DNA from: Dictyostelium discoideum
Lineage: Eukaryota
DNA length: 64,000 bases
NCBI GenBank assembly: GCA_000004695.1
Contig: CM000153.2
Span: forward strand, 576,001-640,000
Direction: 5' to 3'
The notes below the pieces were generated by a model. The model was not told the DNA's origin. It worked only from the letters and a program-made list of their open reading frames with translations, and ran no database searches. Position numbers and translations under genes: made by a program. Every line of letters starts with the position of its first letter. The stretch's first letter is position 1. Shown here piece after piece: positions 11,429 through 55,896 of this stretch.

Positions 11429-18000
<6,572 letters not shown>

Positions 18001-18664: not shown

Positions 18665-18727
18665 ATGAGTAACAATAACTTATTCTCCAATGTATCAAAA
18701 CAACTAAGTTCAAACAATGGAACTACA

Positions 18728-18759
<32 letters not shown>

Positions 18760-19083
18760 AGGATATAGTTCAAGATTTTCAATAGCGTCCACACTTCCAA
18801 CCAATAAAAATTATAATCAAACCGAGAATTTAGATTTTCTCTCAAAAATGAGTAATACAAATAATAATAATAATAACAATAATAATAATGGTAATAATAA
18901 TAATAATAACAATAATAATGTAAATAATATCAATGAAAATAATACAGTTAATATAAATCAAATTATTGATAATTCAAGTAGTGCTAGGTAAGACATCTTA
19001 TATATACATATACATATATATATATACATATACATACATATATATATATATATATATATTTATGTATATATATATATATATAT

Positions 19084-19123
<40 letters not shown>

Positions 19124-20001
19124 GTATTTATTAAATAACTATTTTATTATGTTATCTAACTCACACACACATTCAATTACAGAAAAAGAAAGAATGTTAG
19201 AATGTCAATGGGAGGTAGAGTTAGTTTTGCAAATACAGTGGAAGTTAGATTATTTGAAAAGACACAACAAAATAATAGAAGGCCAAGTTTAAGAAATCCT
19301 TTTCCTTCTAATTTATCAAATACTGACTCTCAATCTTTAGAAACACCATCAAATACAACAACACCAAATCAAAATATAGTGGGAGTAGAAAATGAAAATG
19401 AAAATGAAAATAAAACAACTGATAGTATTGGTGCTTATACATTTAGTAGCATTAGTAGTATAAATAGTACAAATACATTATTTAGTAGTAATAGTGATAG
19501 TGGTAGTAGTGGTAATAATGATGATAAATTCTTTTTCAATAGAGATGACGATGAAAATGATAATAGCAATAATAGTAATAATAGTAATAATAATGAAGAA
19601 CAAGATCAAAAAACAATGGATTTCACACAAACCTATGGTAAAATATTTGTACCTTTTATAAAGGATGAAACTCAACCACTTAGAATTCATGATGCATCAA
19701 ATGATAGTGGTTTCACTGATGATGATAGTAATAGTAGTGGTAATAGTAGTGGAGGATCATTAGAACTAACGGAAAATGATGAACAAAGTTATTTAGATAG
19801 TTTACAAAATGATGATTCAAGAATCATTCAAACTCCATCATTACAAGCCATTTTAGAAGAAGCTGAATTCTTATTTTCAATTAAAAGTAAATCACCTTCA
19901 AAATCAAAAATTACTGAAATTAATAATAATAATAATAATAACAATAATGATGATGGAAATGAAAATAGTAATAAAAAAGAAGATAATGATATCATTGTAA
20001 C

Positions 20002-20059
<58 letters not shown>

Positions 20060-22407
20060 AATGATGATGATAATAATAAAAGTAACTATAATAATAAATC
20101 AATTGCAGATATGGATATTTCAAGATACCAATCAACTATAAATTCACCAATTCATAAGAAATCACGTCAATTATTAGATAGTTCAGTCGTTGGTGATGGT
20201 AAATTAACATCACTTGAAGATCTTTTGAAAGAGGATACTGAAGTTTTAGATTTTGATGGTGCTAATGATTATAAACCACCACCACCATCAACAACAACAC
20301 CAACAACAACACCAATGAAATCTTTATCAACACCACCATCTTCTTCTAAAATATTCCCAAGAATTTCAAATATTTTCCCAAATTCACCATTACCAAGTTT
20401 ACAAAATCTAAGAAAGAAAAATAGTAATAGTGGTGGTAATAGTAGTGAAGATGAAATTTTAACAAATGGAGATTTAGGTGAAATCATTAAAAACTTTTCA
20501 ACTCCAAAACTTAATCAACTTTATTCTGATGATCATAGTTTTGATGATCAAGATTTTAATATTGTAAATAATAATTATGATAAAACTGATGATGAAACTG
20601 ATGATAATAATATTAAAAAATTAAACAATAATAATAATAATAATAATAATAAAGACAATCAGAAAGAAAGTGAAGAAGAAGAAGATAATGAAGAAGAAGA
20701 TGAAGAAGAAGATGATGAAGAAGAAGAAGAAGAAGAAAATTATAATAATACAACAGTTGATAGATCAAGAATTTATCATCATAAGAATGGTACAGCAGGT
20801 ATTGGTGGTAGATTAAAAGAATTAGTAGAAGATGATGAAGATGGTGATATTTATGATGCCGAACAAAGAGATATGACATTAACTTTAGCTTTTGATAAAA
20901 TTATTGCAATGGCTAATAATAAAAATGATAATAATAATAATAATATTGAAAATAATAATCAATTATTTTCAAATAGTTTAACGACAACAACAACAACAAC
21001 CAATGAAAATGATTATTTTATTGATGAGAATAATCAAGATCAAAAAGATATGACAATTACAAAATCATTTGGTAAAATATTAGAAATGTATAATCAAACA
21101 CTTACTGATATGAAAGAAATGTCAATTTCAACTCAAAATATTGATAAACTTTTAGAGAATAATAATAATCATAATAATAATCATCATAAAGGTATTTGGG
21201 ATAATGATAATATGATAGCAGATCCGAATATTACAAATAATCTTAGAGATTTATATGAAAATACTACAGTAACTCGTAATTTAAAAACTTTAGTACAAGG
21301 TAGAAAATCTATGATACCAATACCATCTTATTCAAAGGATAGGGATAATAATAATAATAATAATACTGGTACATTTAGATTCTCTGTTGCAAGAAATCCA
21401 ATGACACCATCACATGGTGGTGCTGGTGGTCAAATGATACCAACCAATAGTGGTGGTAGTAATACAATGAATTTAAATAAAAAGCTATGGAATCCTCAAG
21501 CTGATGTAACTCATAATTTAAAGAGTCTATACACAAATAACACAACCACAATGAATTTTGGTAGATATTCAATTGCAAATCCATCAAATTATTATAATAA
21601 CACAGCACCAATTAGCACTATTAAAAAGGATCAAGTTTTGGACATGTCATTCACTCAATCCTATGGAGTATTTTCAAAATATCAACCATTCTCAACTACT
21701 AAATCACCATTTGTTAATCCAAAATCTCATCAAAAACAACAACAACCACAACAACCACAACTTCCACAACCACAACAACAATTATTATTAGAATCAAGTG
21801 TTACTAGTATTAAAACTAATGAATCACATTATCCAAGTTCAAATGAAGATAGTTTAGATAATCCATTAATTGAATCAACTGCTTCAAACGTAACAATGGA
21901 ACAACGTAACCTTTTATCAAATTTCATTCTACAACAACCACAACCACAACCACAATCAATACAACAACCACAACTACAACAACCACAACCACAACCACAA
22001 CCACAATCAATACAACCACAACAACAATCACAACTTCAACAATCCCAATCAATACAAAAGCAACAACAATCTAATACTAACAAACAAGTTACACAAGAAT
22101 TTAATTTAACATCAAGTCAAATTCAACAATCACAATATCAATCTACAATTGCCAATAATAATAATAATAATACTACAAATATATTAAGCACTAACAATAA
22201 TTTTAATCAAACCACAAATACTAATAATTTTGGAACATCAATGGTTACTCGAATTCAAGAGATATCAACATCAACAAGAAAACAATATACACATTCACCT
22301 TCTTTAATTGAAAGCGATATTGGTTTTGACTATGGAAGAATTAATTTTGAACAAAAAGAAAAACAAATCAACACCATCACTAATAATAATAATAATAATA
22401 ATATTAA

Positions 22408-22500
<93 letters not shown>

Positions 22501-24163
22501 CACTACAACTAACACTACTACAAGCAATAATAATACAAACAACAATATCAACAATACTGATAATATTCTTGCCAATGTTTTTGATAATAAAAAATTACCA
22601 CAAAAGCAACAACAACAACAACAACACCAACAAAAACAACAACAACAACAACAAAATACAACTATAAATACACAAAAAATTACAATTCCAAATCATAGTA
22701 GTAATAATACACATACTACTAATATGCAACTTTATATTAATCATCCAATGGGTGAAATATCAGAGAATATTTATAATAGAGTTGGTGTTGAATATAATTC
22801 TTCATTTAAAGAGAGTCATATTAATTATCATCATCAACCAATATCTTCAATGGATTTAGAAGATCTTCAAGAGAAAATTGTTAATAATAATAATAATAAT
22901 AGTCAAAATAGTATTAATCAAAATAATTCAATAATTGCAACTAATATACCAATTGTTGGATGTGGAATAATTAAAAAGATAACATTGCATGAATTCCTCA
23001 GTTTGGCACATTGTCAATTTTTAGAAGATAAAGCATCTAGACGTGATTCAATGATTGGTATGCAATTTACAAATGTATTAGACGATCAAGATGATAATAC
23101 CAACAACAATAATAATAATAACAATGATATTGAATTTAAAAAGAGAATTAATAGTATTTATAATAATCAACGTCATTTAGTTATTTTAAAGAAAGGTTAT
23201 GAAGAATTAAAAACTATGGTATCAAATATAAAAGAGAGTAATCGTATGGAAGAGGAGAAAATCAATCAAAAGAATCCACCAATCTTTTCAAATATTCAAT
23301 TGAGTAGTGAAGAACTTTATGCAAAACAACGTCTATTAAAGAATATTAAATCATTTGCAAAACAAAAAGCACAATTGGCCTATAATGAATGGAGAAATCA
23401 ATTGGAAATTAAAATTTATGATGAAATTTTAAATTCAACTCATGAATTAATTAGTAGTGAAACTATATTAAATGAAAGTAAAAAATGGATTGAAAGAAGT
23501 ATTAAAACAATTGATGAAAATATAAATTATTTAATTGATATTGAAAAAGTTATAAAATTACAAAATCATCAATTAAATTCACCAATTTTATTATCATCAA
23601 ATAGTAATGCTAGTGGTAATAATAATAAACAACAACAACCAAATAAAGAAGAACAAGAACGTGAATTATTATCAATTTCTGAATTTACTAAACAATTTTC
23701 ATTATTTTTCAATTGGACACCGATTCAAATTTCAGAGAAATTAATATTATTAGAATTTAATGGTAAATTTTCAATCTCTTTAATTTTAAATCAAAATGAA
23801 ATTCAATCTTCAAATTTAATATTATTTTCAAATATTTCAAAGGTAAGTAATTATAAATATATATTAATTAAACTTAACTTACAATTTATTAACATTTTAA
23901 TTTTTTTTTTTTAAAAAAATAGTTTGAAATTGATTTAATAAATAAATCAAATATTAATAAAATGGTGAAAAGTATAAAAAATATTAAACAATTAAGTATT
24001 ATAATACAAGAGATTAGTTTTAGAATGTCAAGATTAAATACTTTAATTAAAGAAATTCAACAATTAGAAAGACTTTATAATATTAATAAAAATCAAGAAT
24101 CAATTTCAACAAATGTTAAAAATAAATATTCATTTAAATCAAATAATTTTAATGAAATATCAA

Positions 24164-24195
<32 letters not shown>

Positions 24196-24480
24196 GTAGG
24201 AGAAGAAGGAAAAGAAGAAAATCAATATGTTGATATTAAAGTTCAAATTTCAAATGTTGAAAGTTTAAAGAAAATTGTATTAAATCTTCAAATACCATTA
24301 TTATATCCAAAAGGTAAAATTGAATATGCTTTCACTACAATCATTGGATTTAATAATGGTAATACTCAAGGTTTCATTAATCAAATTAATCAAATTATTA
24401 CAAGTGAATTAAAAAGTAATCAAAGTAAATCAAAATTAACAAAAGTTTTACAATCATTAGAAATTTTAATTTCTTATTAA
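18665..24480 (+). CDS. KNL1/Spc105-like kinetochore scaffold protein candidate (~1850 aa); join(18665..18987,19183..23842,23923..24480)
   Basis: Exon 1 (Asn-rich) ends AG|GTAAGA. The intron is (TA)n-rich with acceptor CAATTACAG at 19182. Exon 2 begins [27 protein letters not shown], with RVSF at 19217..19228. It carries repeated [DE]M[ST][FLI]T..[FY] motifs ([12 protein letters not shown] ~19612, [12 protein letters not shown] ~20869, [13 protein letters not shown] ~21044, [12 protein letters not shown] ~21640), poly-Asp/Glu tracts, Q/P-rich repeats and a C-terminal coiled coil. A final exon after the GTAAGT intron 23843..23922 encodes a ~185-aa globular tail. Confidence 0.5.
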
Positions 24481-24576: not shown

Positions 24577-26174
24577 TTATAATTTTGAATTAATGAAATT
24601 TGAAAGTGATAAATTATTATTATTATTATTATTATTGTTATTATTAATAGTATTATTATTATTAATACCACCAATTGGTAAAGTTGTTACAGTTGAATTA
24701 TCAGATAATGATTTTTTATATTTATCTTGATATAATTCAATATAAGATTTTTGAAGATAATTATTTTCCAAACCTAATTTTTTACCAGCTTCTTGAACAG
24801 AGGTTGCATCGAAACCTTTGATTTGAACAAATGTTTGACCCAATTCTTCAAGTTCATCATAAGAGATAATGATTTTACCATCTTTAAAGATTGTTGATTT
24901 TCTATGAATGATTGCAACCATTTGATAGCCCAAGGACATTAGACCACCCAACATATTGACACCAACGACGAAATCGACACGTGGTGAAATGATGAAAGGA
25001 CCTTCTTTAATCTCCTCACTAAACATAATGCTATATTGACCATCGGCATTACGAACACGAATCCAATCACATGATGATGAGTTTGCAAAAGTAGTATTTG
25101 GTGGAATTAAATAGATGTCATAGTAACGTGCTGTGTTCTCTTGAATGGTGGATTTATTTAATACTGAATGAATCATGTCCACTGTAACACCTTGTTTAAC
25201 AGATTTTAAAATATAGATTGGATTTAATAGACCACCGAATGGGTTAAACTTATTGACCACTTGAATCTCGGCCAATTGTAAATCAGGCTCAATGAATGCT
25301 TTATACATTGGGTAAACGGTATCGGTGATTTGTTGTAGTGATTCGTGTGGTTGTTGACCAGTTCTATGAACATCTCTAAAAATACGTTTAATCAAATCGA
25401 AATGAACACCACCAGAGATCGATACTCTTAAATCCAATAAATGACGAATCTCTTCATGTAATGCATAGATACCTTCAATTAATAATACTTTGGATTCTGG
25501 TGGTTGTACTCTCTTGTATGCGTATCTACCACTCTTTGTAAAATCATATAATGGTAAATCAGTTGGTTTATTGCTAATTAAATCACTAATATTCTTTTTT
25601 AATAATTCAAAATCAACTAATCTATAATCATCATAATTCTCTTCAATAATTTGTCTTGAACTATCTAAATAATTATCTAATGAAATTAAACTAAAAAATT
25701 TTATAATTATAATTATTAGAAATTTTATTATCTCTTTCAAAAAATATATATTTTGTACATACATTGATTTTGGTAAAACAGAAACGATTTTTTGAGCAAT
25801 TGAAGTTTTACCAGCTCCTGATGGTCCAGCAATACCAACTACGATTACACTACCTTGACTCTTTTTTCTTATTGATTGAATTGCTCTAACTGCTAAAAAG
25901 AAACCTTTATCAAATGACTAGTAAATAAAGTAAATGAAAAAAAAATTAGATAAACTTTATTTATTTTCACACTATTATCAAAATAAAATAAAAAAAAAAA
26001 AAATAATAAAAAAATTATTTCTTCTTTTTTTATTTTTTTATTTTTCATAATAAAATAAATAATAATAATAATAAAAGTTTTTAATATACTTACAAGTGTA
26101 TCTTTTAATGGTTTAATTGTATATCTATCATCTTTATCAGGTCTTGGAATAACCTCAATCTCTAAACTGTCCAT
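24577..26174 (-). CDS. Uridine kinase/phosphoribulokinase-family P-loop kinase fused to a C-terminal CYTH-like domain (449 aa); complement(join(24577..25690,25763..25917,26094..26174))
   Basis: Exon 1 is MDSLEIEVIPRPDKDDRYTIKPLKDTL, donor GTAAGT. Exon 2 is SFDKGFFLAVRAIQSIRKKSQGSVIVVGIAGPSGAGKTSIAQKIVSVLPKS (Walker A), donor AT|GTATGT. Exon 3 is ILISLDNYLDSS...DYRLVDFELL...LLIEGIYALHEEIRHLLDLRVSISGGVHFDLIKRI, uridine-kinase-like. The C-terminal ~200 aa is beta-rich with EIK/IRVR motifs. Confidence 0.6.
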
Positions 26175-30938: not shown

Positions 30939-32048
30939 TTAAGCTATAATTGAATAAAATTTATTTTTAGAAGAGAAAATGATTCGATTTTTTGAAATTA
31001 TTTGAGCAGATTGTAAAGGTTCATTCGACATCATACTATTTACATTTAATACCTTTGAAAATTCTACAGAATCGTTATCGTTACCACAATCATTATTATT
31101 ATTTTGATTATTTTGATTATTAATATTATTACCGCTATTAAAGAGTGAAATGGTTCCTTCAGAAGACCATGTTATCATTTGTTGAGAAGATTGATTTCTA
31201 TGAATACCTAATAAATCTTTATTATGAGATTGAAATGAATTTAAACAGGTTGAACTATACATATTCCAAACTTTAAATTTACAATCTTTTGATGAGCCTG
31301 TTAATATTATTGGATCTCTAACAGCATGTGGCGATCTAAATAAAACTGAATCAACACCTATACTACCACCACTGCTGGAAGATGGTGGTGAATGAGTTAA
31401 TGTACGAAAACAATGAGAATTTCTAATATCCCATAATTTGACTTTACCATCTGAATCACCAGAAATCATTAATGGTTGATGAGATTGTGAATCAATTGAC
31501 AAGATACCAACTCCACCATTATCCATTTTTGAGATTGGGTAAAGTGATTTCTCAAGATCCCAAATTTGAATTGAAGAATCTTTAAATGAACTTGTAATTA
31601 CATGAGTACCATTCCAAGTGATATCTTTAATCGTATGTCGTTGTTCATCACATTTAATAACTTTAATTGGTAATAGTGTTGTTGGGCTATTAGCACTACC
31701 ACTAAAATCTGTCTTTTTCAATTCAAATAATGATATATTATTATTTGACATTGCAACAACTAAAAATACCTTTTCATTTATAATTTGATATTTCATACAA
31801 ACTACTGATTGTTCCATTTGTAATGTACTTGTTAATGATTCATTATCTAAACTAAAATATTTAACAATATTACTATCTTGATATGATACTAAAAATGAAT
31901 TTTGTTCTGAAATATGATTTAAACTTTTAATTATTAAATTATCATTTAAATTATTCGTATTATTATTTTTATTATTTATATTATTATTATTATTATTATA
32001 ATTATTATTTGATAAAAATGATTTTTTGGTGAAAGATGATTTAAAAAA

Positions 32049-32093
<45 letters not shown>

Positions 32094-33695
32094 TACATTA
32101 TCACTAACATTATTATATATACAATTTTTAGTTTCAACTTGCATTGATAAAGAATAATCATTTATATCTTGTGCATAGTAACCATTTTTTGAAGAATTTT
32201 TATTTGATTTTATTTGATTATTTATATTACTTTCTCTTAAATTATTATTTGATTCTGATGATTTGGTTAAATTATTGTCACTACTACTGCTACTGCCACT
32301 GCTAGTGCTAGTGCTACCACTACTGGTATTATTTGATGAACAATTTAAATTTAAATTTAAAAATAATGGATCAGATTCAATTTGATTTAAAATTTGCAAA
32401 ATCTCTTTAAATGAAGGTCTTAGTGATGGTGTAATATTCCAACATTTTGAGATTAATTCAACCCAATAAGGTGGGAAACCATTTAATGGTAATCTATAAT
32501 CTTCAACCGAAGCTAAAAATGCCAATCTTAAAGGTTCCATACCATTATATGGGTCACGACAAGTTACAATCTCCCAAAGAATGATTGCAAATGAGTAGAC
32601 GTCAACTTTTTCAGTGTAATTCTCTGCTTTGAAGCATTCTGGTGCCATCCAAGCCAAAGATCCCATGGCAGCGGTCATTTCGGTTGGACCTGGTTTCATC
32701 TCTTTCGATAGGCCGAAATCATTGATTTTGGCAACGGTGTAACTACTATTTAGAAGGATATTACTACTTGTTAAATCTCTGTGAACTATCGGACCCTCTT
32801 TAAAATTTGTATGTAAATAATTCATACCCTCTGCTATATCTCTTGCAATGGATAATTGAAGTGATGGTGGTAAATGGTAGCTTGACTTCTCGTCCAAGAG
32901 TCTTCTTAAACTGCCGCCTTCCATATACTCCATAATGATCGACCTGTCATTTGATGGGCCATCGAGTGAACATGCTCCTATAAACATCACACATGTAGGA
33001 TGGCATAGTTTGCTCATTATCGATACCTCCTTATCGAAAATCTCAGTCTCTGTTAAATCTCTAAACTTTATCAATGTTATCTTTTTCAAAGCAACACTTT
33101 TACCCCTCCACCTCGCCTTATAAACTTTACCAAAGAAACCTTGACCTATCTCTTTCTCCACTGTTAATTCTCTCGATGGGATTTCATGCTTCTTTAATGT
33201 TGATTTCAATTTAACCAATTGCTTAAAGTTGATTTTATTCTCTCCATTATTTAAAAATGATGAATTTAAACTACTACCACCTCTACTAAATATTTGATTA
33301 ATTTTATCATTAAAACTATTTGATGTAATTAATGTTGGTGATGTTGATGAAATATCTTCATTACCACCACCACCACCACCACCATTATTATTATTATAAA
33401 AATCATCACTGTCATCTACTATAATTTGTGTTGGTGCAAGATCAGAATCTGAATCTAAATCAGACTCCTTTTCTTCTTCAGTACTAGCAATTTCATCGTC
33501 ATCATCATCATCGTCATCATCATATTCAACATCTTCACTTTTATCATTGTTTCTATTACTACCACTACCAAAACTTTCAACTAATGAAGATGAATTTATA
33601 TAATTACCCATATCAATCGATGTTTTTATATTTATTTTATTATTTTCATTGTTTTCATTTCCTTGATTGTTATCATCTTTATCGTTATTAAACAT
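30939..33695 (-). CDS. TKL-group serine/threonine protein kinase with C-terminal WD40 repeats (918 aa)
   Basis: Single ORF from ATG at 33695. Kinase subdomains are present ([40 protein letters not shown]). WD40-like blades follow ([49 protein letters not shown]). N-terminal acidic and poly-Asp tract. Confidence 0.7.
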
Positions 33696-35258: not shown

Positions 35259-37564
35259 ATATAATGAACAAATTAATTAATTTATTGGGAATATATTTAT
35301 TTATTTTTCTCTAGAAATTAAAAAAAACAGAAACAGAAGCAGATAAAGAATTTAAACCACCATCTTTATTTTCAAAGAATGAAGATAACGATAATATAGC
35401 TTTTAAATCAAATTTTAAACCACCCTCAAAACCATCAGCAAAACCATCATTTGGTGGTATTTCATTTAATATAACCACTAAAGTATTACCACCACAACAA
35501 CAACAACAACAACCAACCATTATTAATAACAATAATGACAATGAAAGCCATGAAGAAAAAGAATCTATAAATAATAGCAATAATGTTAACAATGATAATA
35601 ATAACAATAACAACAGCAGCAGCAGCAAAACAGCCACAACCGGACCAATAAAACCAACTACAACAACAAACACAGTTGGACCTCAAAAACCGACAAATAC
35701 TGTTGGTCCAACAAGACCAACAAAAATGGATGATGATGATAGTAGTGATAGTAGTGATAGTAGTGACGATGAAAATGATGATAAAAATAAAATCCAACAA
35801 GTATCAACAACAACAAAAAACAATATTGGGCCACAGAAACCAACAACAACAACCACTAATGTTGGACCACAAAAACCAACAACAACCACTAATGTTGGAC
35901 CACAGAAACCAACAACAAATAATGTTGGACCACAAAAACCATCAACCACTAATGTTGGACCACAAAAACCAACAACAAATACAATTGGTCCTCAAAGACC
36001 TACAATAAAAGATGACGACGATAGTGATTCAGATTCAGATTCAGATTCAGATGATGATAATTCAAATAAAATTAAAAATGAACAACAAGGAATTGTTGGT
36101 CCAACAAGACCAATAATGAAAAAAGATGATAGTAGTGATTCAGATGATGATGATGATTCAGATGATGATTCAGATGATGATGAAAAAGAAGAAATTGAAA
36201 GATGGAGACAATTAGCAATATCATTACCAATATCACATGAAGTTACAATTAAAGGTCATGCAAGAACTGTATCAAGTATATCAATTGATCCAAGTGGTAG
36301 TAGAATGTTAAGTGGTTCTTATGATTGTAAAGTGAAATTTTGGGATTTCAATGGTATGGATTCATCTTTTAGATCATTTAGAGAGATTGAACCATCAGAG
36401 GGTACACAAGTTAGATCCATTCAATTTAGTAATTTAGGTGATATATTCTCGGCATTACCATACACAACTCAAATTAGAATCTATGATAGGGATGGTCATT
36501 TCAAGAATGAATCGGTTAGTGGTGATAGATTCATTCAGGATCTCTACCATACGAAAGGCCATGTTTCAACATTGACCGCTCAGTGTTGGCATCCCACAGA
36601 AAGGGATGAATTGATTTCGTCATCCATAGATGGTACTATTAGAGTTTGGGATGTGAATCAGTTGAGCAAGAATAAGTCTGTCATAAAATCAAAGAATCAA
36701 AAGGGTAGTAGAGTGGGTGTTTCCAATTGTTGTTTTGACCAACGTGGTGATTTAGTCACTGGTGGTATGTCTGATGGTACTATCGCCCAATGGGACAAAC
36801 GTTCGACTTTGTTGAAACCAAAATTCACTTTTCAAGATGCCCACGAGTTTGGCACCCAAGTTACCTCGATTCAATACAATCGTGATTGCTACTCTATGAT
36901 TTCCCGTGGCATGGATTCAACATTACGAGTTTGGGACCTTAGAAATCCTTTGAAACCCTTGGTGGTTTGGGATGACCTACTATGTGATTACATTGAAACC
37001 AACACTATATTCGGCTCCTATGATAGAGTGATTGTAACTGGTACATCAGCGCCTAAAGGAGGCTTTGGCTCAATTGTTATCTACGATCTATCAAGTTTAA
37101 CCAAAATGAGACAAATTAGAGTGGACAATGATGTTAGTGTAGTCAATTGTCATTGGTCAACCAAATTGAATCAAATCTTTTTCGGTTGTTCAGATTCATC
37201 AATTCGTGGTTTCTACGATCCAACTCAAAGTGTAAATGGTTTGAAACTTTGTGCTTCAAAAGCACCAAGAGTTAAAAATGTGGCCGATTTCGAACCTGAT
37301 AGACCAATCATCACACCAAATACTCTTCCTCTATTCAGACAAACTAATTCTAAAAAAGAAAAGAAATCTCAAAAAATTAATCCTTCAAAAGAACAACTTA
37401 AAAGTACAACATACACTTCAAATAGTACTATGAAACATTTAGTTTCAAAAATTGGTATTATTAATAATACTTCTTGGAAAGAAGATGCAAGAGAATCTTT
37501 CCTTAGAGTAGCAAATAAAAAAGAACAACAACAACAAGAACAACAAAAAGAGGAAAAAAAATAA
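35003..37564 (+). CDS. wdr70: WDR70 (Gad-1-like WD-repeat protein) homolog (~772 aa); join(35003..35071,35315..37564)
   Basis: Exon 1 is MNSTNNSQKREREDNEDINNIDS|GTAAGT, acceptor TTCTCTAG at 35314. The central region ITIKGHARTVSSISIDPSGSRMLSGSYDCKVKFWDFNGMDSSFRSFREIEPSE aligns with human WDR70 (ITLKHGTKTVSALGLDPSGARLVTGGYDYDVKFWDFAGMDASFKAFRSLQPCE). N-terminal [NT][NIV]GPQ[KR]P repeats and acidic Ser/Asp tracts parallel the WDR70 IGPPLPP motifs. Confidence 0.7.
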
Positions 37565-54772: not shown

Positions 54773-55896
54773 TTAAAGCAAATCAACAACAACAACAACA
54801 ATCATCATATCAACAATCTCAAACACAACAACAACAACAACATATTACATCAACATCAACATCAACAACTAATAAATGGATTGACCCATTTGGTGGTTGG
54901 GAAACTCAATCATCATTATCACATCCACCATCACGTCCACCACCACCTCCACCACCACCACCACAACTACCAGTTAGATCAGAATACGAGATTGATTTCA
55001 ATGAATTAGAATTTGGTCAAACCATTGGTAAAGGTTTCTTTGGTGAAGTAAAGAGAGGTTATTGGAGAGAGACTGATGTTGCCATAAAAATCATCTATCG
55101 TGATCAATTCAAAACCAAATCATCATTGGTTATGTTTCAAAATGAAGTTGGAATACTAAGTAAATTAAGACATCCAAATGTAGTTCAATTTTTGGGTGCA
55201 TGTACTGCAGGAGGTGAAGATCATCATTGTATAGTAACAGAATGGATGGGTGGAGGTAGTTTAAGACAGTTCTTGACTGATCATTTCAATTTACTCGAAC
55301 AAAATCCACATATTCGTTTGAAGTTGGCTTTGGATATTGCAAAAGGAATGAATTATCTACATGGTTGGACTCCACCCATTCTTCATCGTGATTTATCCTC
55401 AAGAAACATTTTATTGGATCACAACATCGATCCAAAGAATCCTGTAGTTTCCTCAAGACAAGATATTAAATGTAAGATCTCTGATTTTGGTCTAAGTAGA
55501 TTAAAGATGGAACAAGCCTCTCAAATGACTCAATCGGTTGGTTGTATTCCCTACATGGCACCAGAGGTTTTCAAAGGCGATAGTAATAGTGAAAAGAGTG
55601 ATGTTTACTCCTATGGCATGGTTTTGTTTGAACTATTAACCTCTGATGAACCTCAACAAGATATGAAACCAATGAAAATGGCTCACTTGGCTGCTTATGA
55701 ATCTTATCGTCCTCCAATTCCATTAACTACCTCTTCCAAGTGGAAAGAAATTCTAACTCAATGTTGGGATTCTAATCCTGATAGTCGTCCAACCTTTAAA
55801 CAAATCATTGTTCATCTCAAAGAAATGGAAGATCAAGGTGTATCTTCTTTTGCATCTGTACCTGTTCAAACTATTGATACTGGTGTTTATGCTTAA
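48687..55896 (+). CDS. splA: SplA-like dual-specificity (TKL) protein kinase with three SPRY/B30.2 domains and a SAM domain (~2350 aa in the exons found); join(48687..51134,51216..51289,51357..55896). 5' exon with the start codon not identified
   Basis: Coding starts abruptly at an acceptor (AAAAAATTAG|ATT) with no in-frame ATG. Long Ser/Asn/Gln/Pro-rich N-terminal region. Introns at 51135..51215 and 51290..51356 (GTAAGT donors) lead into SPRY domains (~51216-51700, ~51780-52280, ~53330-53790). A SAM domain follows (WAPNDVAIWLESFNYGQYRKNFRDNNISGRHLEGITHAMLKNDLGI..., ~53860-54060). A C-terminal kinase domain closes the protein (GKGFFGEVKRG...HRDLSSRNILL...DFGLS...APEVF, ~54990-55860). Size and architecture match Dictyostelium SplA (~2410 aa). 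Confidence 0.6.

Follow-up and report, generated by a model that had tools for sequence, protein, structure and literature searches.

The D. discoideum DNA analysed here (64,000 nucleotides, hereafter the window) carries a three-exon gene on the + strand (18665-18987, 19183-23842, and 23923-24480), whose spliced coding sequence of 5541 nt encodes 1846 amino acids and contains a single stop codon at its end. The original prediction of a three-exon gene with a low-complexity product of ~1850 residues was thus accurate, and the exons keep the reading frame when joined. Both introns have GT..AG boundaries (AG/GTAAGA...ACAG/A for intron 1 and AAG/GTAAGT...ATAG/T for intron 2), and exon 1 is an ATG-initiated ORF that runs to the GTAAGA donor. 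Splicing was deduced from the sequence and from collinearity with orthologues, not from transcripts. Scanning the window for tRNAs gave no hits. The features of the gene are as follows.

18665..18987, +, exon 1: aa 1-107 and two bases of codon 108; Asn-rich N-terminus
aa 53-59, in exon 1: conserved TENLDFL motif
18988..19182, +, intron 1: 195 bp, (TA)n-rich, GT..AG, with a TRF array at 18999-19131
19183..23842, +, exon 2: aa 108-1660, with RVSF, MELT-like units, low-complexity tracts, Spc7 domain, and the RWD-N beta-strands
19217..19261, +, PP1-docking-type motif: aa 120-134, by direct reading
19607..19657, +, MELT-like unit 1: aa 250-266, MDFT at aa 253
20000-20071, poly-D tract: aa 381-404, read from the translation
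20111..20122, +, degenerate MELT-like MDIS: aa 418-421
aa 603-626, E-rich tract: read from the translation
20864..20914, +, MELT-like unit 2: aa 669-685, MTLT at aa 672
21041..21091, +, MELT-like unit 3: aa 728-744, MTIT at aa 731
21119..21130, +, degenerate MELT-like MSIS: aa 754-757
21197..21256, +, lineage-specific second repeat, copy 1: aa 780-799
21488..21532, +, lineage-specific second repeat, copy 2: aa 877-891
21635..21685, +, MELT-like unit 4: aa 926-942, MSFT at aa 929
22280..22354, +, conserved block: aa 1141-1165
22976..23527, +, Spc7 domain/coiled-coil stalk: aa 1373-1556, containing a near-invariant NPPIF motif
23687..23842, +, N-terminal half (beta-strands) of RWD-N: about aa 1610-1660, from alignment, 4NF9 profile match, and orthologue model
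23843..23922, +, intron 2: 80 bp, GT..AG, phase 0
23923..24480, +, exon 3: aa 1661-1846 and stop, with the RWD-N helices, a Ser-rich linker, and the complete RWD-C

A HMMER search against 1.84 billion representatives gave only 7 homologues, all with the order RVSF, MELT-like units, Spc7, and RWD. Word-index searches with the C-terminal 490 aa, either raw or stripped of low-complexity sequence, found no match at E<=0.01 among 8000 candidates each, and the 1846-aa protein, looked up by its exact sequence, had no cluster entry in that collection. The sequences compared were those of seven other dictyostelids (P0001-P0006 and Polysphondylium pallidum, PPAL006832) and of a more distant amoebozoan, P0007. 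The seven dictyostelid proteins are collinear with that of D. discoideum: all have a motif of the RVSF type, between 3 and 5 MELT-like units, Spc7, and the tandem RWD. Sequence identity is 24-45% across the RWDs and 27-34% across Spc7. In length they fall short of the D. discoideum protein by 370-840 residues, a difference due almost wholly to homopolymer or low-complexity insertions in the latter. Over half of the D. discoideum protein is low-complexity N/Q/D/E/S sequence, in which the acidic poly-D/E tracts that had been described are present.

The RVSF motif (aa 120-123; window 19217-19228) lies three residues past the Met pair of the second exon, essentially where the original prediction had placed it, and occurs once in the whole protein. 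All 7 of the other dictyostelid orthologues retain this region in the form [RKG]V[SQ]F[AS].T[VI].VR.FEK, and P0007 also keeps the RVSF core. In D. discoideum the motif is preceded by GG, not by basic residues; its human KNL1 counterpart is RRVSFADTIKVFQTE. We regard it as a putative PP1-docking motif of the RVSF type, a feature that counts toward KNL1 membership. No SILK motif ([SG]ILK) was found upstream of RVSF by a regular-expression scan of the protein. To our knowledge, the SILK motif is not universal among KNL1 orthologues, so its absence does not exclude KNL1 membership.

At least four MELT-like motifs had been claimed; all four that were quoted are present, together with two degenerate copies. 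A scan with the strict pattern [DET]M[DST][FLI]T..[FY] gave 4 matches, far above chance: 20,000 shuffled versions of the protein averaged 0.00085, and none reached 4. Each of the four strict motifs is followed by a ..[FY][GD].[IF] tail. Unit 1 is kept in position in all seven other dictyostelid orthologues, the 11-residue core of unit 3 is identical in P. pallidum, and every other amoebozoan orthologue has 2-5 homologous units. The number of MELT repeats across eukaryotes ranges from 0 to about 35-40 (Tromer et al., 2015). The four strict and two degenerate copies, which are scattered over the disordered, low-complexity middle of the protein, form a MELT-like array of the type used to recognize KNL1. 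The strings EMDISK and DMDISK, akin to the degenerate MDIS, are readable in P0003 and P0001.

Other short motifs are particular to this lineage. The second repeat, W..[DN][IV]T[NH]NL[KRN].L, occurs in most dictyostelid orthologues, with F for W in P0005 and P0006. When scanned for, the block KQY.CTPSF...DSF.YGK[IL]NF matched 7 of the 8 dictyostelid sequences, all except P0003. TENLxYL upstream of RVSF and NGTxGxGGRL are also conserved.

A Pfam scan of the full-length protein returned 0 families because the low-complexity sequence hid the Spc7 match. The C-terminal 475 aa alone matched Spc7 (PF08317) with 44.5 bits, above the gathering score of 34.5 (E=1.5e-11), and the homologues scored 1e-27 to 4e-17. 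An Spc7 domain above the curated cut-off is a further sequence feature indicative of KNL1, and the label "highly divergent" given to this protein was thus an overstatement. A profile of the amoebozoan Spc7 region gave as its best PDB match S. cerevisiae Spc105 (9S4Q_Kl), weakly (E=0.0064), and also matched generic coiled coils. Approximately 95 residues (roughly aa 1478-1573) read directly from the translation contain neither Pro nor Gly. The proposed C-terminal coiled coil is thus backed indirectly, by the Spc7 match, the Pro/Gly-free segment, and the generic coiled-coil matches.

The C-terminus was analyzed with profiles and with two structure models, one of exon 3 alone and one of the closest orthologue's entire RWD region. 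Among PDB sequences, a profile made solely of amoebozoan C-termini matched both RWDs of human KNL1 (4NF9_A, E=4.2e-10); it also matched 8Q5H_K (E=1.2e-09) and 4NFA (E=2.9e-09). In the AF2 model of exon 3 (ma0a922633da5; pLDDT 68, a moderate value), strands at 102-141 and helices at 148-184 form a block with pLDDT 61-84; its 12 best Foldseek matches were all RWD domains, although with weak E values of 0.008-0.2, and its PDB neighbours include KNL1 4NF9/4NFA/8PPR_K. The AF2 model of the orthologue was better (pLDDT 80, pTM 0.69), and its 5 top PDB matches were all human KNL1 (E=1.7e-07 to 5.6e-05, TM 0.51-0.65). Pfam Knl1_RWD_C matched 7 of the 9 amoebozoan sequences (best E=1.9e-07), while the D. 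discoideum sequence alone stayed below threshold (17.5 vs 27.8 bits), and a phmmer search of the PDB with the single sequence retrieved nothing but a spurious match of poly-N to an MBP fusion tag. A Med15_C match to the last 80 aa (Pfam, E=1.4e-4, below the cut-off) was rejected as chance alpha-helical similarity, the region belonging to RWD-C. From these profiles and models, the predicted tandem RWD is homologous to that of human KNL1, and is specifically KNL1-like, not a generic RWD. The last exon had been likened to the RWD tail. The RWD assignment stands, but the module is not confined to exon 3: it straddles intron 2, exon 2 ending with the beta-strands of RWD-N (strands E24-63 in the orthologue model) and exon 3 holding the helices of RWD-N and the entire RWD-C (beta-beta-beta-alpha-alpha with an invariant YP motif).

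The spliced protein is identical at 1846 of 1846 residues, exon junctions included, to Dictyostelium_discoideum_DDIS000748_Knl1, the D. discoideum Knl1 in Dataset EV1 of van Hooff et al. (2017, EMBO Rep), which has a single Dictyostelium Knl1 entry. By this sequence identity it belongs to the curated KNL1 orthologous group. A 2026 review lists DDB_G0283381 as the Dictyostelium KNL-1/Spc7/Spc105 orthologue, "uncharacterised" and with localisation "ND". From that review, and because the window contains matches to both primers of pyk1 (DDB_G0283385), one at 55321 and the other at 55540, the present locus is almost certainly dictyBase DDB_G0283381. The main text of Tromer et al. (2015) mentions neither Dictyostelium nor Amoebozoa. 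With Spc7 above threshold, a KNL1-like tandem RWD, and conserved RVSF and MELT-like units, the KNL1/Spc105-type identification holds, and sequence and models together make it very probable that the locus is the single D. discoideum orthologue of the outer-kinetochore scaffold KNL1/Spc105/Spc7. The further idea that no Dictyostelium homologue was known, and that this might be the missing hub, fails, because the same 1846-aa sequence was published as Knl1 in 2017. The gene is already known and has been catalogued since then; it is not a missing kinetochore piece, and our result mostly confirms the existing annotation.

Could the KNL1-like appearance be misleading? A coiled-coil, low-complexity protein with an Spc7 domain might have drifted into a function away from the kinetochore, in which case RVSF and the MELT-like strings would be artefacts of composition. 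The predominance of N/Q/D/E/S sequence, the lack of a Pfam match for the full-length sequence, and the "ND" localisation would fit such a history. However, composition would be expected to yield 0.00085 strict MELT-like copies, not four; RVSF and the units are conserved in position across the eight other amoebozoan orthologues at only ~30-45% identity; the tandem RWD is specifically KNL1-like; and the genome has no other Knl1 candidate according to van Hooff et al. (2017). We therefore consider this explanation highly improbable. Nearly as improbable is an error in the gene model, by which exon 1 would be a separate small gene or UTR with translation starting at the Met pair (19202), or exon 3 a gene of its own. 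The in-frame ATG at 19202 alone opens a 1570-aa ORF and exon 3 contains an ATG-initiated ORF of 172 aa, as such a model would have it, but both junctions are consensus GT..AG and keep the frame. The N-terminus of P0002, with which exon 1 is collinear, continues uninterrupted into the part matching exon 2 (NIFSNVSKQ...SIATSL...YNQTENLSYL...KKRKKDARMSLGGGKVSF). Moreover, the RWD-N fold requires the exon 2 strands as well as the exon 3 helices, and the published D. discoideum Knl1 has exactly these junctions, including SNISK/FEIDL between exons 2 and 3.

For the single KNL1 orthologue, a mode of action can be proposed by analogy with family biology established in yeasts and animals. At the kinetochore, KNL1 would be held to the Mis12 complex by its tandem RWD, and the coiled coil would pair with a Zwint-1/Kre28-type partner. 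At unattached kinetochores, Mps1 would phosphorylate the Thr of the MELT-like units, and the phosphorylated units would dock Bub3-Bub1 to start spindle-checkpoint signalling; after microtubule attachment, RVSF-bound PP1 would undo this phosphorylation. The dataset of van Hooff et al. (2017) has D. discoideum entries for Bub3, Bub1 (MadBub), Mps1, Mis12, Dsn1, Nnf1, Nsl1, and Zwint-1. In conflict with it, the 2026 review finds no Mis12-complex orthologue identifiable in Dictyostelium, which makes the receptor of the RWD uncertain. That the tandem RWD, which is of the Mis12-binding type, is intact speaks for the existence of a Mis12-complex receptor in Dictyostelium despite the review. The lineage-specific motifs might dock partners peculiar to Dictyostelium, a speculative and rather unlikely reading of their conservation. 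One possibility would be a KI-motif-like contact with the Bub1/Mad3 TPR; another, a connection to the permanent centromere-cluster/centrosome tether (Cenp68, Sun1) that has been discussed for Dictyostelium. The RVSF, the six MELT-like units, Spc7, the tandem RWD straddling intron 2, and the conserved motifs provide a map for Dictyostelium kinetochore work.

In comparison with known systems, human KNL1 (CASC5; 4NF9/4NFA, tandem RWD with Nsl1; 8Q5H/8PPR, KMN network) carries its coiled coil ahead of a C-terminal tandem RWD, as does the Dictyostelium protein, and the RWD folds agree with a TM of about 0.6 at a sequence identity of only about 14%. The human RRVSFADTIKVF resembles the D. discoideum RVSF flank, RVSF being followed in both by A[DN]T[IV].V. 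Human repeats of the M-[DE]-[IL]-T type (MDLTSSHT) are similar to the 4-6 MELT-like units of Dictyostelium, whose tail is ..[FY]G.I in place of SHT. Unlike human KNL1, the Dictyostelium protein has no SILK found and no KI1/KI2 recognised, and carries long poly-N/Q/D/E tracts and dictyostelid-specific motifs (W..ITNNL, KQYxCTPSF). The order RVSF, MELT, coiled coil, and RWD is common to Dictyostelium KNL1 and fungal Spc7 (S. pombe)/Spc105 (S. cerevisiae), whereas repeat number and flanking low-complexity tracts differ. In the weak alignment with S. cerevisiae Spc105 (9S4Q chain Kl, E=0.0064), HPPLL is aligned to the amoebozoan NPPIF and a W is also conserved. The dictyostelid RWD fold matches the yeast chain (E=0.064, TM about 0.4) more poorly than it matches human KNL1.

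Joining three exons gave a 5541-nt frame with one terminal stop that encodes 1846 amino acids, which bears out the three-exon, low-complexity gene of the original prediction, and both introns have GT..AG ends.

Structure of the KNL1 gene (from the reading frame)
18665-18987, + strand: exon 1
between 18987 and 19183, + strand: intron 1, 195 bp, (TA)n-rich, AG/GTAAGA...ACAG/A
19183-23842, + strand: exon 2
between 23842 and 23923, + strand: intron 2, 80 bp, AAG/GTAAGT...ATAG/T
23923-24480, + strand: exon 3

The spliced translation was identical (1846 vs 1846 residues) to Dictyostelium_discoideum_DDIS000748_Knl1, the only Dictyostelium entry in Knl1.fa of Dataset EV1 (van Hooff et al., 2017, EMBO Rep 18:1559, PMC5579357), and this identity also confirms the two splice junctions as they stand in the reference annotation. 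In a 2026 review of the Dictyostelium centromere (PMC13510849), KNL-1/Spc7/Spc105 (DDB_G0283381) likewise appears as a candidate orthologue, with its localisation given as 'ND' and the protein as 'so far uncharacterized'. With both entries on record, the locus is not a missing kinetochore hub, and the proposal that no Dictyostelium homologue was known fails. Novelty is thus refuted; this is a catalogued orthologue for which experimental work alone is outstanding.

The window is typical Dictyostelium DNA, with very AT-rich intergenic regions and open reading frames that carry (AAT)n, (CAA)n and (GAT)n tracts. Both qPCR primers reported for pyk1/splA (DDB_G0283385; PMC3934975) match exactly at 55321-55340 (+) and 55540-55559 (-), 239 bp apart, which places the window in the DDB_G0283385 numbering neighbourhood and puts the pyk1 tyrosine-kinase-like gene downstream of KNL1, at a distance of about 31 kb. 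In the convergent downstream neighbour, 24577-25764 (-), a uridine kinase/PRK-family domain is combined with a CYTH domain in one protein (Pfam E=2.5e-18 and 2.6e-08, respectively); because the PRK match begins at profile position 61, this gene likely has at least one further upstream exon. On the other side lies a 1759-aa RCC1-repeat protein, 11782-17061 (-), which is possibly continued by an upstream 215-aa N/S/Q-rich ORF at 17353-18000 (-). Further large ORFs encode a protein kinase that carries WD40 repeats at its C-terminus, 30939-33695 (-), and a WD40-repeat protein, 35726-37564 (+).

A Pfam search with the full-length 1846-aa protein returned no family, because the low-complexity bias correction masks the Spc7 domain. 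When the last 475 residues were searched alone, Spc7 (PF08317) was matched at aa 1373-1556 with E=1.5e-11 and 44.5 bits, exceeding its gathering score of 34.5 bits. The same composition probably lies behind the failure of a word-index protein search, which found no match in two attempts. When the portion of the C-terminal region encoded by exon 2 was run with HMMER against 1.84 billion representative proteins, only seven homologues emerged, six dictyostelid (P0001-P0006, E=1e-27 to 4e-17) and one more distant (P0007, 3.5e-05). All seven share the same order of parts, namely an N-terminal RVSF-type motif, two to five MELT-like units that fit [DE]..[DT]M[DSTE][FILM]T[QKA][ST][LFY]G[KR]I[LFI], an Spc7 region that opens with I[ST]F.[DE]FL and contains NPPIF, and a conserved C-terminal stretch of about 230 residues. 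The best PDB match of the Spc7-region profile was S. cerevisiae Spc105 (9S4Q chain Kl, E=0.0064); the remaining matches were generic coiled coils such as Lpp, which fits a coiled-coil stalk.

For the C-terminus, we built an amoebozoan-only profile from the window's protein, P. pallidum Knl1 (PPAL006832) and the seven homologues. Against all PDB sequences, its significant matches were only to the human KNL1 C-terminal tandem RWD: 4NF9_A (E=4.2e-10; profile 10-219 on chain 5-212, spanning both RWD domains), 8Q5H_K (1.2e-09) and 4NFA (2.9e-09). Pfam Knl1_RWD_C matched seven of the nine sequences (best E 1.9e-07), with the D. discoideum sequence alone scoring 17.5 bits, under the 27.8 cut-off. Structure prediction past the coiled coil also gave an RWD-like fold. 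The model of exon 3 alone (aa 1661-1845), with the homologues as alignment (mean pLDDT 68, pTM 0.61), has a long helix followed by a disordered linker rich in Ser and then by a beta-beta-beta-alpha-alpha part (pLDDT 61-84 in 10-residue blocks), and its best 12 PDB neighbours by Foldseek were all RWD domains, including RNF25, GCN2, RWDD1 and KNL1 (4NF9/4NFA/8PPR_K), with probabilities of 0.75-1.00 and weak E-values of 0.008-0.4. The whole region of the closest orthologue, P0002 (45-50% identity there), was modeled as two consecutive RWD-like units (mean pLDDT 80, pTM 0.69), whose best five PDB matches were all human KNL1 (4NF9_B, 8PPR_K, 4NF9_A, 4NFA and 8Q5H_K; E=1.7e-07 to 5.6e-05, TM 0.51-0.65, ~235 columns); kinetochore and Fanconi proteins that also have a double RWD matched far lower. 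By alignment, the four strands of the first RWD are encoded by the last part of exon 2, starting near aa 1610, and exon 3 supplies its helices and the entire second RWD. Exon 3 thus accounts for just two thirds or so of the module, so that the RWD tail foreseen for the last exon stands as a fold but not in its confinement to that exon.

The short motifs foreseen from the sequence, that is, an RVSF after the second-exon Met, at least four MELT-like motifs and acidic poly-D/E tracts, were all present, with two degenerate MELT-like copies besides.

Short motifs and acidic tracts in the KNL1 protein
aa 120-123, + strand: RVSF (sequence reading)
aa 253, 672, 731 and 929, + strand: strict MELT-like motifs MDFT, MTLT, MTIT and MSFT (motif scan)
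aa 418 and 754, + strand: degenerate MELT-like copies MDIS and MSIS (motif scan)
aa 381-404, + strand: poly-D tract (translation)
aa 603-626, + strand: E-rich tract (translation)

The protein carries the strict pattern [DET]M[DST][FLI]T..[FY] four times; 20,000 shuffled versions of it averaged 0.00085 occurrences, and none attained four. A looser pattern is present six times in the protein, where 0.59 would be expected. This confirms that the motifs are not a composition artefact. A scan of the whole protein for a SILK motif found none.

These results contradict the view that the gene encodes a non-kinetochore coiled-coil protein with chance motifs: the motif counts exceed those in shuffles, motif positions are conserved among orthologues of only ~30-45% identity, and the double RWD is KNL1-specific. 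Likewise contradicted is an error in the gene model that would set exon 1 or exon 3 apart from the rest, since the N-terminus of P0002 is collinear with exons 1 and 2, the first RWD fold runs across intron 2, and the published gene model is identical. Taken together, the domain, profile and fold tests indicate that assignment to KNL1/Spc105/Spc7 orthologues is correct, and the Spc7 domain, the amoebozoan profile and the fold matches bear out the type of protein originally proposed.

Given how KNL1/Spc105/Spc7 is known to act in animals and yeasts, we infer that the tandem RWD would dock on the Mis12 complex and the Spc7 coiled coil would pair with a Zwint-1/Kre28-type partner. Mps1 would phosphorylate the Thr that never varies in the M-x-hydrophobic-T units, the phosphorylated units would recruit Bub3-Bub1, and RVSF-bound PP1 would undo this phosphorylation upon attachment. 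The 2017 dataset contains D. discoideum entries for the partners that this would require, namely Bub3, Bub1/MadBub, Mps1, Mis12, Dsn1, Nnf1 (DDIS009803), Nsl1 (DDIS004481 and DDIS011137) and Zwint-1. The literature is at odds on the Mis12 complex, as PMC13510849 states that no subunit orthologue is identifiable in Dictyostelium whereas PMC5579357 lists Mis12, Dsn1, Nnf1 and Nsl1; the intact KNL1-type RWD argues for a Mis12-complex receptor in Dictyostelium.

The sole part of the locus without an existing account is a set of extra motifs common to dictyostelids: TENLxYL, W..[DN][IV]T[NH]NL[KR].L (two copies), NGTxGxGGRL and KQYxCTPSF..YGK[IL]NF.

Dictyostelid-conserved motifs in the KNL1 gene
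18821-18841 (aa 53-59), + strand: TENLxYL
aa 643-652, + strand: NGTxGxGGRL
21197-21256 (aa 780-799) and 21488-21532 (aa 877-891), + strand: second repeat, W..[DN][IV]T[NH]NL[KRN].L (conservation among orthologues)
22280-22354 (aa 1141-1165), + strand: KQYxCTPSF...DSFxYGK[IL]NF

KEN often stands before TENLxYL in orthologues but is absent there in D. discoideum. In a comparison with P0001-P0006 and P. pallidum Knl1, the second repeat sits between MELT-like units and occurs once or twice in most of the dictyostelid orthologues; it may be an analogue of the '2nd repeats' of other lineages (Tromer et al., 2015).

The other dictyostelid orthologues are 370-840 residues shorter than D. discoideum KNL1 because of homopolymer insertions in the latter. 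An (AAT)39 array (22381-22497, 96% pure, ~40 Asn) and a (GAT)23 array (20002-20071, poly-Asp) in the coding sequence likely explain most of this excess, and are likely to vary in length between strains. Compared with human KNL1, the RVSF flank (RRVSFADTIKVF in human) is similar. The MELT-like units are followed by ..[FY]G.I in D. discoideum and by SHT in vertebrates.
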